Shown here: piece by piece, positions 22,601-28,600 of the stretch
Numbering within the stretch: the stretch's first letter is position 1
Layout of the letters: every line of letters starts with the position of its first letter
NCBI GenBank assembly: GCA_044892525.1
Contig: CM097885.1
Span: 31,870,001-31,930,000 of the forward strand
Direction: 5' to 3'
DNA: 60,000 bases
DNA from: Schmidtea polychroa
Lineage: Eukaryota
Notes under the pieces: generated by a model
Databases searched by the model: none
Told to the model about the DNA's origin: nothing
The model's input: only the letters and a program-made list of their open reading frames with translations
Translations under genes and position numbers: made by a program

Positions 22601-25600
22601 TTATGTGGACTGGTACTATCTGATTTTCCACTTTGACAACTTCGTCACATATCGGTAAATCATATTTTTCGACTAGCGTTTGATTTGGTTCGAATATAAA
22701 ATCACCATTATCCACACTCATGGTATTTGCACAATATATCATCTCCGATTGTGGTGGTATTGTCAATGTCTGATTCACAAACACTTCGCCTGCCCTGTGA
22801 ATTATTTCTCCTGTTTCTCCTGCTATCAAATTACCTGTCTTTAAATCAAGTGAGACTCCATCCAGCTGCTCTAATATATCCATGCCGATCAGACATCGTA
22901 CTGGACTTCCCTTCATTATGAGAGCATCGTGCGCTATTATTCGATCTCCAATATGGAATATGACGTTAAGTTGTCCAATTATGTTTAATTCGTTTTTTGA
23001 TAATGACCTTACTATTTCGTCGGTAGGCTTTATTCGCATTTTCTCCTTCGCGTTTAATACATTTTCCGATATTATTGTGTGACTAGATCCCGAATCGACT
23101 AAAGCTTCCACTTTATGTTTGTTCATTTGTATAAATATTCGGGGTTGCTTTCCTCTTTTTGTTAATGTCATCATTGAGTAGTTAAGCCTAACATATTTTT
23201 TTCTCTCGATCTCTGCGCTAGAAGGCTCAATTCTCTCTCCTACCATTCCTTCACATTGTAATGCGATATTTTCCACTGGTTTCATCTCTCGTAATCGATC
23301 AACTGGATACACTGGTGCTGGTTGCATAAATGATTTTGGTATACACAATTTTGTAAACGTGTCTACGCTACTCGCTTTCAACAGTGGCTCTTTTAAGATT
23401 TGATAAGTTCTTAACGCTTCTTTATTCATTCCACTTAGTTCTTGATTGTCAACATATAACGGTGCACTATCCCCCTCGTTGTCATTGTCATTATTCTCGT
23501 CCCTTGAAGGGGTTGTACTAGCGTAGCTCACCTTTTTCTTCTTTAATATTTGAGCCTTGAGTATCTCCAACTCCTGATATTGATGATGAGTAATGAAGAA
23601 TCTAGCCAATAATGGTATACAACCAATTACTAGTTTCCACGACCAACCTGTAATCGCGTATAATCTGTGTGTTGATAGGACCTGCGATATTATTACTTTG
23701 ATTACAACACATATTACATAAATTCCAATCAATCCGGCACACGCTTGTCCAATGAACATAAACTTTCCCCAGATCTTTTTCATTGTATTATACGTCGCTT
23801 TCTTGTAATGACCTGGAGTTAACAAATACTCGTAATTTACCTTCCCACTTCCGCTTGGGAGAATTGTATCTACCATTTCCATTATTACTCTTTCCTTCTT
23901 TGATGGAAATAACAAGTTTCTGTGAGCTTCCTCAATGTCTTCGTTCGAGTAAATTCCGCTTTGCGACAATTTTTCTAACGACGTAAAATTTACCAGATAT
24001 TGTAATTCTGTCAATTCTAAATTTTCCGGTGTCTTTACTTCTCGATGATCTGGTAATGCAATCCAAGATTCTGGTGTTAGTCTGTATAGTGGTGCCAACA
24101 ATCTATTGCACTGTAATACTTTCGGTTTCACGTCCTCTTCCAGTAAGATTCGTTTTACAGGCTCCATAAATCGCAACTTTCCATTTAAATTTACTGGTAA
24201 CTCGTTGGTGCATTGGTCATACTTTGTCAGTTTAACTGGTACCGCTTTACATTTATAGCTATATAGTGCTTCACCGAAAATTCTGGCAAACACCCCATTT
24301 TCTGTAATTAACATTGGTGCTATCAAATTAGCCATTGCCATCCGATTTCGGAGTATTTCTTTGTTGAGATTGCAATCATTTATAATAACTTCTCGGTACA
24401 CATTTTCAACAGTATTTTGACCAAAGTGAAATAAATAATCTATTTTGTTATTAAAGTAATTTGTCAACTTGATATCTCCGGCATGTATGTTTGTTTGGGC
24501 CTCTGTAATCATCTTCTGAGATACATATATACCTTTATAATTTGTCTCATAGACACTTTGTCCACACTTTGTTTTAGTTTCTTTTCTCAGGAATCGCATT
24601 CCATCTTCCTCCGAGGTTGACATTAACACTGTTGGAGTATCTTTCATCCGTAGAGGTGTGATTCTTGTTGTTGTACTCGTTGTTGGATCCATTCTTATTT
24701 TCTCAGGCTTTTCCCTGATCTGTTCTCCCGTTATTTCTTTAAAACTCATTGACTTCAATTGCACTAAATTGCACTTTTTGGTATCGACATCATACACCAA
24801 AATTGATTCTCCTGTCTGACAGCTAGATTGTTTCATGTTGCAGAATGGATGTGTTTGTAGTTTACCAGTATCATCATCAAATGATCCATCAAATTCTCTT
24901 AATTCTGACATGTAGTCTTCCACAACCACGGCTTTGTCAATTATAGCATCGTCTACTTTGTATGGCTCTCCTTGGCAATCACCATTCGACTTTATTATCC
25001 CTCGCACGGTTACAGTCTCGCGGATTTTGTGGTTAAGCTTTGCTTGTAGTTTAATATCTGCATTGATTTTCAACTGTCCTGTTTGAAAGGCTGCCAAACA
25101 ATTCTCTGGAATTATTTCTATCGGTCTAGGTATCGATTGCATTTTCACCATCGATGAGTGGCTCCATTTTCCACAATAAAATACAAAAGTAGTTCGTTTC
25201 ACTGTACACTCTCACCTTTGCTCGTCGAAACCCCGATTCTTGATATACATGATATTTTACTGGATTTGTCACTTTAAATTTTACTGGATATGCATCTGAA
25301 CACTCTGCAACGTTTACCAACGAATATACTCTTCCCATTTCGGTTTGGGAGCAGTCGTATGCCACCAATGAATTCGTCGTGTTTATTATTCCCAATAACA
25401 TAATAATAGAAATCATCAACCATGGAATAGCGAATTTTCCCTTTTTCCTCACTGTCTCTGTTTTTGGGCTCTCAGCATTTTGTATCAACTTGTCCCATCC
25501 GCCATTGTTTGCGATTAACTTAGTCAAATATTTATTCGTCATTTCAGTAGCTTTCTTTATCAATGATTTTGAATTATCACTTTCCAGACAACCATAAATA

Positions 25601-28600
25601 CCAATCTCCAATATTATATAGGCTAACACTGTCAATATTACATCTCGATCCAACTCGGTTCGTGTTAGGTCCTCAATTACTGCTTCCTCACAAAATTCCT
25701 TTTCTTCATAATTTCTTTTAATTATCGACGGTAATCTCCTCTTTAATTCCGTTGCCAATCTTTTTACAACACTTTTCTCCCCCTCCGACGTATCATCTTC
25801 TATTTCAGTTTCATCTAACAAGTACAATTCCGTAACTAAACTTTTTAATATTCGCTCAGTCTTGCTTGATTCATCTAAACCTCAGTTTCGCTTGATTCAT
25901 CTAAACTTAAAGATTCAATTTCCACATCATTCTGTTTTTTCCGACATATCGCAATGTCATTTTTCGTTTCAACGAAGTTCTCTTCACTTTTCATCTCATC
26001 TATGCTCGGTAGTACCCTATTATCGGTGCTCAATTCCTCGATATCCCTTGTAACTTCATTTTTCGATCCCATTTCCTCATTTTCCATTGTTTCTAATCTC
26101 TGCAATTCATTAATTTCTTGATCAATTTCTCCTGGGTCATCTACAACTTCAGTTTTAATCTCTACATTATCATTATCCGTTTCCTCATACAGAGGCCAAA
26201 ACGGTACTATTACTGCATCTCTTTCCATTTCATCACTTTGTTTTGTTGCGTACACATTATTAATACAATTTGGGTTACATCCGTAGTTTAACAAATATTC
26301 GTCATCATCTAATTCTCGTCCTAATTGAACGTCAACACGATAATTCCTTCATTACCTAATATCTCCGCTGCTTTTTGTCGTATTTTCTTTGCTTTTATAC
26401 TCCAATGTTCCTGATAATATTCAATCCTTTGATCCGCAATATTTAACGCTATTATCAAAGACTTGGCACTATCGTCTGCCGCTTCATAATCATGTCCTAG
26501 TTTCCGGATTACCTCTTTTAACTTTGCCTGATAACTTGTCGGTTTATTCGTATACGGTACGATGCATTCAAACAACCCTTCTTTCATATCTCGGTCCATT
26601 TCGATGCTCATTATGAAGTCGATACTCGCATAAATTCTATCTCTATTCCCTGCATACAGGGTATCTTGTAAATCTGCTAGAATCTTTTCCCAATTTTGTC
26701 TGTTTGAATTCAAAGTATTAACAGCATTAACAACATTTACTTTATTTTTCCAGCCTGGTATCAGATCGTAATCTACCAAGTACTCTTCGTCTTCCAGACA
26801 TCGATTCTCAAATTTTGACGCAGTATTCGCTCCTTTAGCTCTCTGATTTGTCCGTAGGCATTTACACGGAATTGGCACTTCACATTATCAAGTCCCATCG
26901 TTTCCACTATGATATCAGCTAAATCCCTTGTTGACCGTAAAGCCTTGCCAAACTTTTGTATTTGCTTAAGTATCTCATCGTCTCTGCTTCCTTTGAATAA
27001 CTTTGCACATAAATTTATGGCTCTCTTTAGTTCGCTTTGGGTTAGTGATATCACACTGAGTTCTGCGATCCATCGTTTCAACTGGGAGTTGTCAGTTTCC
27101 ATTTTCTCAAGCCATTTTTCAACTCGGGCTAACAGTGCAGTCGGATTCTCATCTGATGCGATATTTCGCACTTTCGTGGCAGGTTTTCCCTCACCTTCTG
27201 ACACGGTTCCAATTATCATATGAGATTCAGTTTCCTCATCTGATTCAAATTTAGCCACTAGTTTGTTCAGCTTCTGTCGCATTTCTCGAAATTCCTTTTC
27301 CATTTTGTCTTGAAATTCCTCTCTCTGCGCATAGGTCATGTTACTGGTGTTTGGCATATCTTCTTGGAATCTGATCGATTTCTTTAGTATAGGTCTGCTG
27401 AATCTTTCTGAGTTCCTTGGGCATGATCGCGCCATGTGGCCGTATCCCTTGCACGAATGACATTGTATCTGTCCATTTGTATTCACTTTGTCCCGTTGTG
27501 GTGAAGGTGACGTTGACGATGATCTTGATCTGGTGAAACAGTTTCTGCTAATATGCCCTTTCTTTCCACGTCGATAGCATTCGACATCACTGCTGATCCG
27601 TTTGTTTTCTGTGAATCTCTTGTTAGGGCTGGGATTTTTCCCATATTTGAACCAACATTGATTTGAATAGTGTCCAGACTTTTTGCAATGTTCGCATTGA
27701 GGATTATTTACTTGTCCATTTGATTGTACGTTCATGGCTGATCTACTGGCTTGAAATCTATTATTTGGTCTCAAAATTGGACTACTGATTTGATTTATTT
27801 TCTTTTCATCCCATGGTGCTCTCACAGGCGTAATTGACCGCTCACGTCTCTCCACATTAACTCCAAAAGCATCTGATCTTTTTGCACTTTTTAAATTCAG
27901 CTTTATCTTCATGGCTTTCTTCACGAGCTCATCGAAATTGGAAAAATCCACATAACATAGGGCCTTTTTGATTTCGGAGTGGACTCCGGTTATAAACTGA
28001 TCTTCTAACAGCTTTTTAACCTGCTTGGCCATATCTGCTTGGTCTGGTTTAACTTCAAAGGCTTTATCTGCTAAAGTGGTCAGATGATAAGCAAACTCAC
28101 TGACCAATTCATCTGGACCTTGAACTCGATTATAAAATTTCTGTCGCATGATTCTTTTGATATCTCCACCAACCAGTTTCAGTGCCATTGCATCCTTCAA
28201 TTTTGTCCAATCATTGCCAACATTCCGTTTGTCGACTTGCTGCCAGGCTTCTCTTGCCGCACCCTTCAGAGAGAGTGGGAATCTCTGAACCATAATGGCT
28301 TGTGTCCATCCGTATGCTGAGGCGTACATATAATAATCTCCCATGAAATCTGCAAATTCAACAGGGTCTCCTCCATATTGATTGACGGGTAATTTCTGGC
28401 AACTTGCGAAATCAATCATCTCTCTATTGAGAGGCATAACAGCATTATCATTTGCCATTTGGACTTGTTTCTGACTTCTGAGGTTGTATCGGTTCACTTT
28501 GAGCTAAACTTCAAACGTTAAACAATAATTTAAAATTACTTTTCAACTTCTTTTAAATCTCCCAATAATAGCCTTTAATAATCTCGTTAGCACTATTTTC

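Follow-up and report, generated by a model that had tools for sequence, protein, structure and literature searches.

Does a retroelement in the genome of Schmidtea polychroa carry a genuine Bcl-2 domain and, if so, to what use might it be put? The question arises from a 60,000-nucleotide stretch of contig CM097885.1 (hereafter, the window), for which an initial annotation described a Bcl-2-like domain captured in the polyprotein, with a tail anchor that doubles as the signal peptide of Env. Every peptide quoted there maps to minus-strand positions 25129-25881, an open stretch of 251 codons in which the first Met is residue 114.

The host element and its relation to Burro

The domain sits in a Ty3/gypsy element of 17.3 kb from LTR to LTR on the minus strand, as are all features below, with the order gag, ubiquitin-like, Bcl-2-like, Env, protease (PR), reverse transcriptase (RT) and integrase (IN). 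The 5′ LTR (28874..29922), with TA runs at its borders, is 98.4% identical over 1,052 nt to the 3′ LTR (12574..13625), which has a polypurine tract ahead of it on the minus strand. Gag (26776..28503; PF03732, E 6e-9) has three CCHC zinc knuckles (PF00098 in three stretches). Ubiquitin-like segments at approximately 26250..26920 were mapped by tblastn from sister loci L021 and L023, in which PF00240 matches under the cut-off (E 3e-4 to 7e-4); the second segment was assigned by eye only. Beyond the Bcl-2-like region lie an Env of the chuvirus/Monjiviricetes fusion type (23688..25368; PF24664, E 4e-77 and E 8e-4) with a C-terminal TM segment (23688-23744), an aspartic protease that shares its frame (22857..23150; PF13975, PF00077), RT with RNase H (21153..22205; PF00078, PF17917, PF17919) and an integrase with zinc finger and core (19756..20840; PF17921, PF00665). 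The post-integrase tail (18714..19724) has no Pfam match and contains a TM segment at 18783-18839; hydropathy was computed with Kyte–Doolittle values.

Frameshifts near 26815 and 26320 break the ubiquitin-like region of the window copy, others near 25880 and 25210 separate its Bcl-2-like domain from gag and most of Env, a stop at 21684-21686 lies in frame within RT/RNase H (ORF list) and one frameshift divides the integrase reading frame. The polyprotein claimed at the outset is a property of the family and not of this copy. Of 150 scored matches in the genome, 15 lie in frames that stay open for 3,000 codons or more, and the longest of its family among the scored matches reach 3,334-3,361 codons; because scoring covered the best candidates only, copy counts are lower bounds. 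Four runs, which carry three different organism labels, have contigs over the stretch; these are uninformative on expression.

The novelty implied at first was too high, as PMC6431247 already describes Burro elements with BCL2 and env placed between gag and pol. Dugesiid planarians harbour giant LTR elements of a gypsy-like kind, known as Burro or GYPSM1 (Jurka 2007; Grohme 2018; Arkhipova and Yushenova 2019, PMC6431247), in which BCL2 is followed by an in-frame env; the env of gypsy elements is usually a separate ORF, and Burro cargo includes BIR/IAP and ubiquitin-related domains (PMC6431247). That annotation was based on motif and HHpred calls, for which its authors request experimental confirmation (PMC6431247). 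Burro RNA rises upon PIWI knockdown (PMC8532177). Burro and the window element have in common one polyprotein with CCHC gag, a ubiquitin/SUMO-like region, a BCL2-like domain, an env akin to mononegavirus fusion proteins and PR-RT-RH-IN, a single gag-Ubl-BCL2-env-pol frame that the window element's family has and the broken window copy does not. A large family in this genome has frames of 4,730-4,817 codons, close in size to the published 4,873-aa Burro1 ORF, and carries the same Bcl-2-like domain and signal-like segment as the window element. The two are 36.6% identical over Env-pol, 61% in integrase and 29% in a segment between PR and RT, where Burro has a dUTPase-like domain; the segment has no Pfam or PDB dUTPase match. 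Whereas Burro exceeds 30 kb, with an ORF of ~4,870-4,900 aa, the window element has its 17.3 kb and a family frame of ~3,330 codons, and the MATH, BIR and ankyrin cargo of Burro has no Pfam match in its nine ORFs, from which broken or short remnants could escape. BIR matches occur at at least 150 scored places in the genome, irrespective of element context. By published description, the window element looks like a shorter sister family of Burro; new here are a structure-level match, purifying selection, support for one origin (six families and outside relatives) and an internal signal peptide topology with a predicted cut.

Evidence for a Bcl-2 fold

Judged by its AF2 model (pLDDT 74.7, pTM 0.71), the domain (25483..25860; seven predicted helices) has a real Bcl-2 fold, worn down: a helical bundle, with helix 1 at 25822-25860 and a following helix at 25735-25770, packs around a central hydrophobic helix 5. 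In VIA-align, where helical bundles can score Z near 13, ranks 1-36 were all Bcl-2 folds; the best aligned 131/133 residues at rmsd 2.9 Å and Z 14.2, and the first unrelated chain came at Z 5.3. Foldseek returned nothing at E <=0.001 (best 1.6e-3), and its top rows were Bak, rank inside the fold not being diagnostic. Modelling and structure search, proposed as checks in the initial annotation, support its domain call.

The Pfam check proposed alongside them failed for the window protein alone, which has no Pfam Bcl-2 match and reaches only E 1.5-2.1 against the PDB, yet 4/4 of those matches are Bcl-2. Scores for PF00452, which has a curated cut-off of 31.4 bits, rise from 15 bits in family A loci to 24-26 bits in families B, C and D and 32-33 bits in a few family-B copies (genome search), and a closer sister family matches positions 1-100 at E 6e-5. 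Element-only profiles match Bcl-xL (A2, E 8e-5, spanning alpha4-BH1-alpha5-alpha6-BH2) and Bcl-2 (A3, E 9e-4, with rows chosen without a Bcl-2 model). Searched against 1.84 billion proteins, A2 found 13 matches, three of them cellular Bcl-2 proteins; an insect-allergen repeat protein, P0002, is a false positive among the 13. Folding of the large family's domain as a single sequence gave pLDDT 51 and pTM 0.35, and a word-index homologue search for longer proteins yielded 0/1,463 candidates at E <=0.01, which is weak evidence.

Could any generic helical bundle have come to look this way, by chance or by convergence? The missing Pfam match for the window protein, the Z values that bundles can reach and an ESM Atlas feature search that suggested bacterial DotU (0.88) would fit such a reading. 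The DotU identity was rejected, however, as its score is under the Atlas lead threshold, and the 36 Bcl-2-fold ranks ahead of the first unrelated chain, the independent profile matches to Bcl-2 proteins and the PF00452 match of the sister family largely refute convergence and leave it extremely unlikely.

Bcl-2 proteins are recognized by a BH2 motif, W-I-x-x-x-G-G-W, and a BH1 motif, NWGR. The BH2-equivalent (25483..25527), located by profile alignment and comparison of loci, ends in NGGW and reads L-I-A-N-N-G-G-W-D in the window copy; of the W-I-x-x-N-G-G-W-D first reported, NGGWD is present and the first Trp is Leu. GGW is conserved among copies as predicted, in 30/30 best-matching loci, with Glu directly after it in 29/30; the first Trp is found in 26/30, with a stop in two, Gly in one and Leu in the window copy alone. 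A loose BH2-like pattern, picked post hoc with the motif already known, has a single occurrence in the six frames of the window and none in 40 base shuffles. The BH1-equivalent (25606..25656; profile alignment to Bcl-xL) is degenerate, as was noted early, with D-R-D-V at the NWGR positions. NWGR is absent from the 15 element-type rows aligned by eye, in which the Trp is kept in 0/15, the Gly in 1/15 and Arg/Lys in 11/15, the last being absent from the window element's family; an acidic residue replaces the Gly in 6/6 genome families. The helical core and GGW are retained while BH1 erodes.

Spread, selection and origin

The domain is found in six element families of this genome and in metagenome relatives, and it immediately precedes Env in 6/6 families examined. 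A dN/dS comparison across copies, another check proposed at the outset, gave 0.11-0.22 (0.11-0.20 for family B versus C, 0.19-0.22 for E versus D), and pN/pS among seven open family-A loci is 0.18 (0.07-0.37). With 0.36 (interval 0.23-0.56), the acidic linker overlaps the interval of the domain. The domain is under purifying selection, not clearly stronger than that on the remainder of the polyprotein.

In each of two trees a branch (99/98 and 98/94) separates the element-type domains from the other rows, the second tree having 7/25 rows removed as fragments or long branches. Spread, selection and trees are consistent with a single capture of a cellular Bcl-2-family domain. In a donor test, neither P0006 (p-AU 0.14) nor L031 (p-AU 0.16) could be rejected as a grouping partner; L042 and L053 are the nearest rows in both trees, without firm support.

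Proposed topology and possible roles

The predicted internal signal peptide (25369..25449) consists of a basic n-region past the BH2-equivalent (25435-25449), a hydrophobic stretch of 17 residues (25384-25434) and a polar c-region. Residue pattern in relatives and hydropathy suggest that it very probably serves Env in this way, as the initial annotation held. The predicted signal peptidase cut falls between 25369 and 25368, ahead of a conserved x-x-A-Y-D-C; small residues occur at -1 in 10/11, at -3 in 10/11 and at -2 in 3/11 diverse members against a background of 0.22-0.28, the 11 junction sequences being mutually related and the features scored by residue pattern. Only two strong hydrophobic segments precede PR, and this is one of them. 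We did not find this reading of the stretch in the literature searched. The broad Env class is shared with Env-bearing Ty3/gypsy errantiviruses (HSV/gB-type Env, PMC13524379) and BEL/Pao Anakin (chuvirus glycoprotein); errantivirus Env ectodomains are flanked by a signal peptide and a TM, or by two TMs, in a paper with no occurrence of Burro, BCL2, Schmidtea or planarians in its main text (PMC13524379).

Whose helix is it? The hydrophobic segment after BH2 aligns to the first positions of PF24664, a viral glycoprotein profile, and could therefore be Env's own signal instead of a Bcl-2 tail anchor. Uncharged runs in the signal-like segments span only 8-19 residues, a length closer to that of cleavable signals than to that of lasting anchors, and they may be subject to removal by signal peptide peptidase. 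In Flaviviridae (flavivirus C-prM, HCV core-E1), a cytosolic protein ends in a hydrophobic segment that serves the following glycoprotein as its signal peptide, as proposed here; these anchors are a topological precedent only, with no homology to the window element. PMC7601889 describes later cleavage of the HCV core-E1 signal by signal peptide peptidase.

In our model, which builds on the demonstrated fold, position, spread and purifying selection of the domain, an ancestor of a Burro-like Ty3/gypsy clade would have acquired a cellular Bcl-2-family domain once and retained it in a single polyprotein, with the ubiquitin-like region on one side and Env on the other. Gag through the Bcl-2 domain would remain cytosolic while Env enters the ER lumen, signal peptidase would cleave past the polar c-region and, through the Env TM, PR-RT-IN would return to the cytosol. 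The Gag-side product would then hang in the ER membrane by its C terminus, at least temporarily, in a Bcl-2-like topology for which HCV core on the E1 signal offers the precedent. Freed by the protease (inspection by eye identified no protease site on its N-side) or left tethered, the domain may act at the membrane as an interaction module whose remodelled surface, lacking NWGR, dampens cell-death or stress signalling of the host and aids survival of the element-producing cell. The loss of the BH1 Trp and Gly counts against this reading, to which we give a probability of roughly 45%.

A purely structural role, possible if somewhat unlikely, would keep the fold without its signalling job: domain and signal peptide together would tether Gag, in the manner of a matrix protein, to the ER membrane beside Env during particle assembly. 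By the inferred topology, Gag, the ubiquitin-like region and the domain share one membrane-anchored product, and a tether would suit both the erosion of BH1 around a preserved core and GGW and the constant place directly upstream of Env. It fits less well with a spacer from GGW to the predicted cut that varies from 45 to 73 residues across members, or with an in-frame deletion derivative whose three dispersed copies, perhaps by chance, keep the domain but have lost signal peptide, Env and pol and gained another TM-bearing tail.

The domain has parallels in viral Bcl-2 homologues of large DNA viruses (BHRF1, KsBcl-2, A179L, M11L and F1L; the non-apoptotic A46, A52, B14 and N1 group), which likewise combine the Bcl-2 fold, a C-terminal hydrophobic segment and eroded BH motifs. 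Those are stand-alone genes of DNA viruses, whereas here the domain is part of a polyprotein and its hydrophobic segment runs into Env. That it works as a canonical viral Bcl-2, its groove binding the BH3 of host Bak/Bax or Beclin and blocking apoptosis or autophagy as herpesvirus and poxvirus homologues do, is rather unlikely. The full-length fold match does extend to BH3-binding proteins such as M11L, F1L and ORFV125 that lack clear BH motifs, as PMC2836074 reports for F1L, and the BH1 Gly is likewise missing from 6/10 of the cellular-type rows examined, so this lineage tolerates its loss. Canonical BH3 binding is nevertheless doubtful because the BH1 Trp is lost in 15/15 and the Gly in 14/15 element-type rows; the acidic replacement in all six families, with the Arg missing too from the window element's family, also speaks against it, and the G145A mutant of Bcl-2 no longer binds Bax or represses death (PMC5841437).

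Bcl-2 without the BH1 Gly has also been described as dominant-negative (PMC5841437), and the anchored domain might act like G145A, or as a Bax-like effector, with membrane damage that helps particle exit. The Bak rows at the top of Foldseek would agree, although such rank order has no diagnostic value; the hundreds of recent element copies in the genome suit a cell-killing product poorly, and no BH3 motif was identified in the domain. We consider such a pro-death role very unlikely.

It is unlikely, although attractive, that the tail anchor of the captured Bcl-2 became the Env signal peptide, which would have let env take up an in-frame position between gag and pol, and that the same helix leaves an active, ER-anchored Bcl-2 altering cell death in a stem-cell-rich host. 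If true, reverse-transcribing elements would have their first functional Bcl-2 homologue, and the clade that carries it would extend beyond the giant Burro families. The idea that a retroelement meddles with host apoptosis can now be approached through a piece of 130-180 residues in place of a 30-kb element. If the domain is active, the viral Bcl-2 strategy would extend from DNA viruses to retroelements that occupy much of the genome of a regenerating animal.

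The element and its probable polyprotein

The domain (25483-25860, minus strand) lies in a 17.3-kb Ty3/gypsy LTR element (12574-29922, minus strand) with LTRs that are 98.4% identical. By Pfam, its order is gag with three zinc knuckles, the domain, Env, protease, reverse transcriptase (RT), RNase H and integrase. Env is a Monjiviricetes-type fusion glycoprotein (PF24664, E = 4e-77) and shares one frame with protease and RT. The copy is broken by frameshifts near 26815, 26320, 25880 and 25210 and in the integrase, and by a stop at 21684. When we searched the AT-rich genome (781 Mb, four large contigs) for family copies, the best 150 of 1,359 candidates were scored, all 89-100% identical; 14 have a stop within the domain and 15 occupy open frames that run to 3,000 codons or more (longest, 3,361). 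One locus, L021, has a 1,178-codon open stretch that is collinear with the window from the gag end across the domain into Env. Because the gag-to-tail-ORF distance in the window approximates a recurrent 3,334-codon frame, we infer that the family would encode a single polyprotein. The initial annotation, whose cited peptides are all present where it placed them, set the domain in a polyprotein; this holds for the family but not for the broken window copy.

A short acidic tandem repeat directly precedes the domain in the window (25855-25906) and in L021; its unit number differs between copies, and one window frame break falls inside it. A 72-unit TA run (28730-28873) extends from the 5′ LTR to the leader, where many other copies have only about 23 nt. 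The region after the integrase (18283-19724) holds a tail that has a transmembrane segment and no Pfam match, as well as a short coiled-coil ORF, and the 4.6 kb upstream of the 3′ LTR (13626-18280) lack long ORFs and carry 66-bp and 50-bp tandem repeats. A third, apparently solo LTR copy (46815-47863, 96.5%) sits within TA runs. An integrase fragment adjoins the 5′ LTR (30068-30262); elsewhere are a hAT transposase remnant by 45-bp tandem repeats (3342-5918) and a Tc5/pogo-type transposase fragment (36650-37231). The start of another element, whose family is Burro1-like, lies within 54101-60000, with a RING ORF (55717-56226), 25-bp tandem repeats (56659-56958) and gag from 58146. Genome-wide, the best 150 of 309 BIR-domain candidates are mostly in 392-393-codon frames, that is, mostly a repeated IAP-like gene.

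A Bcl-2 fold under constraint

Alone, the window protein has no match to PF00452, the Pfam Bcl-2 profile on which the initial annotation proposed to check its call, and finds four PDB matches, all Bcl-2, at E = 1.5-2.1. Searching the genome with PF00452 (best 150 of 909 candidates) recovered host-type genes and many sister-element copies in frames near 3,050 codons (families B and C). Family D, reached through Env matches, aligns to PF00452 positions 1-100 (E = 6e-5), shares 35% identity with the window domain (family A) and led to family E. Family F, reached through the gag at the right end of the window, has the same domain ahead of Env in 4,730-4,817-codon frames. A profile of ten element-borne sequences matches Bcl-xL (E = 8e-5) across helix 4, BH1, helices 5-6 and BH2, and all 60 rows displayed of 120 are Bcl-xL or Bcl-2. 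That profile contains rows selected by PF00452; a five-row profile from A, D and E, with rows not so selected, also matches Bcl-2 (E = 9e-4).

AlphaFold, given the ten-row alignment, predicts seven helices (pLDDT 74.7, pTM 0.71). When the model was compared with 48,161 solved chains, the 36 top-ranked were exclusively Bcl-2 folds (the best at Z 14.2, with an rmsd of 2.9 Å across 131 residues) and the first unrelated chain scores 5.3, bearing out the fold first proposed. Foldseek lists exclusively Bcl-2-family chains, none at E up to 0.001, and the top named rows in a viral structure library are viral Bcl-2 proteins with weak E values. Chance resemblance is therefore very improbable, although the ESM Atlas proposal, at a sub-threshold score, is DotU. 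The proposed BH2 signature, W-I-x-x-N-G-G-W-D, is L-I-A-N-N-G-G-W-D in the window; among the 30 best loci, 26 have the first Trp and all 30 keep GGW, as anticipated. This is a real Bcl-2-fold domain, carried by what looks like a smaller sister family of the Burro elements, the giant gypsy-like elements of planarians.

Domain dN/dS is 0.11-0.20 between B and C (10 pairs; 5 and 2 loci), 0.19-0.22 between E and D (one pair) and 0.20 within A (30 loci). Of those 30 A loci, 7 are fully open, and among them the domain has 0.18 (0.07-0.37), compared with 0.36 (0.23-0.56) in the acidic linker and 0.14 in Env. Judged from these ratios, the domain is constrained, though much as the remaining polyprotein.

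Aligned by eye, BH1 (NWGR) retains Trp in 0 of 15 element-type rows, Gly in 1 and Arg/Lys in 11; the window family lacks all three. In the poxvirus proteins A46, A52 and B14, the Bcl-2 fold serves to inhibit innate signalling. We put at roughly 45% the probability that the domain is a remodelled module with a putative host-modulating role. A tether for assembly is a less likely function. Canonical BH3 binding is unlikely given the erosion of BH1, as the Bcl-2 mutant G145A no longer binds Bax or protects, and behaves as a dominant negative (PMC5841437); however, of 10 cellular-type rows examined, 6 are also missing the BH1 Gly, and F1L, which has no obvious BH domains, binds BH3 peptides (PMC2836074; PMC11209288). 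A pro-death role is more doubtful still.

A predicted internal Env signal peptide

Hydropathy marks 25378-25434 and the Env transmembrane segment (23688-23744) as the two strongly hydrophobic stretches between gag and protease; the core helix of the domain scores 1.61. If Env is lumenal and pol cytosolic, translocation must begin at the first segment. Among 11 diverse members aligned on Env Y-D-C, small residues occupy -1 in 10, -3 in 10 and -2 in 3 (background, 0.22-0.28); because the rows are related, the nominal p of about 1e-5 exaggerates the significance, and +3 is also small, making a second cut site possible. All 11 members have basic residues ahead of the segment. This pattern supports a predicted internal Env signal peptide. 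The suggestion that a Bcl-2 tail anchor doubles as this signal peptide survives in its second half; the pattern does not establish descent from the tail, as the segment aligns with the Env profile from positions 4-8 onward, the spacer between GGW and the cut ranges over 45-73 residues and uncharged stretches are 8-19 residues long. In hepatitis C virus, the E1 signal anchors core until signal peptide peptidase releases it (PMC7601889), a precedent for either outcome, anchoring or release.

A derivative of family C is present as three dispersed copies (L074, L075 and G000:C2:177074688). In it, roughly 6.3 kb comprising the signal peptide, Env and pol have been lost by in-frame deletion, which fuses the Bcl-2-like domain to the distant transmembrane-bearing tail; 3 of the best 150 matches cross the joint, at 96-100%.

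Spread, origin and the Burro elements

A profile search of 1.84 billion representative proteins yielded 13 with E no higher than 0.001. Six have element context (P0004, gag-Ubl-domain-Env; P0007, domain-Env-protease; P0009, gag-Ubl-domain; P0001, P0005 and P0011, domain-Env start), three are context-free fragments, three are cellular Bcl-2 proteins and one is a false positive. Ten were looked up; ENA, JGI or Logan records account for the seven of element type. A single branch sets the element-type domains apart from all other rows, both in a tree of 25 rows (99/98) and in one of 18 (98/94). A single capture is supported by these trees, not proven, because the element-type domains were all collected with one profile and the branches are long. 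In both trees, the closest neighbours of the element domains, with weak support, are L042 and a multicopy intronless Bcl-2-like gene (L053-L058; 152-codon frame), the latter adjoining an ORF that may be TBP-like, judged by eye. Another dispersed multicopy Bcl-2-like gene (L046-L051, L059 and L060) has a short GT-AG intron and a hydrophobic C-terminal tail.

Capture and gene order are already published for Burro elements: Arkhipova and Yushenova 2019 (PMC6431247) describe a Ubi2/SUMO-like motif, BCL-2 and then env, in frame between gag and pol, relate env to mononegavirus fusion proteins and credit the BCL2-like motif to Grohme 2018, in which, or in its supplements, the window family may already be annotated. 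PIWI knockdown raises Burro RNA (PMC8532177), and PMC11410931 mentions Burro once. The main text of an eLife survey of env-bearing gypsy elements contains none of Burro, BCL2 or planarian (PMC13524379). 'Signal peptide' has 0 occurrences in PMC6431247, and within the literature searched, mostly outside subscription journals, no paper links the Burro BCL2 motif with an Env signal peptide or tests its function. To the published Burro work, our analysis adds the structural match, the selection estimates, a broader spread and the predicted signal-peptide topology.
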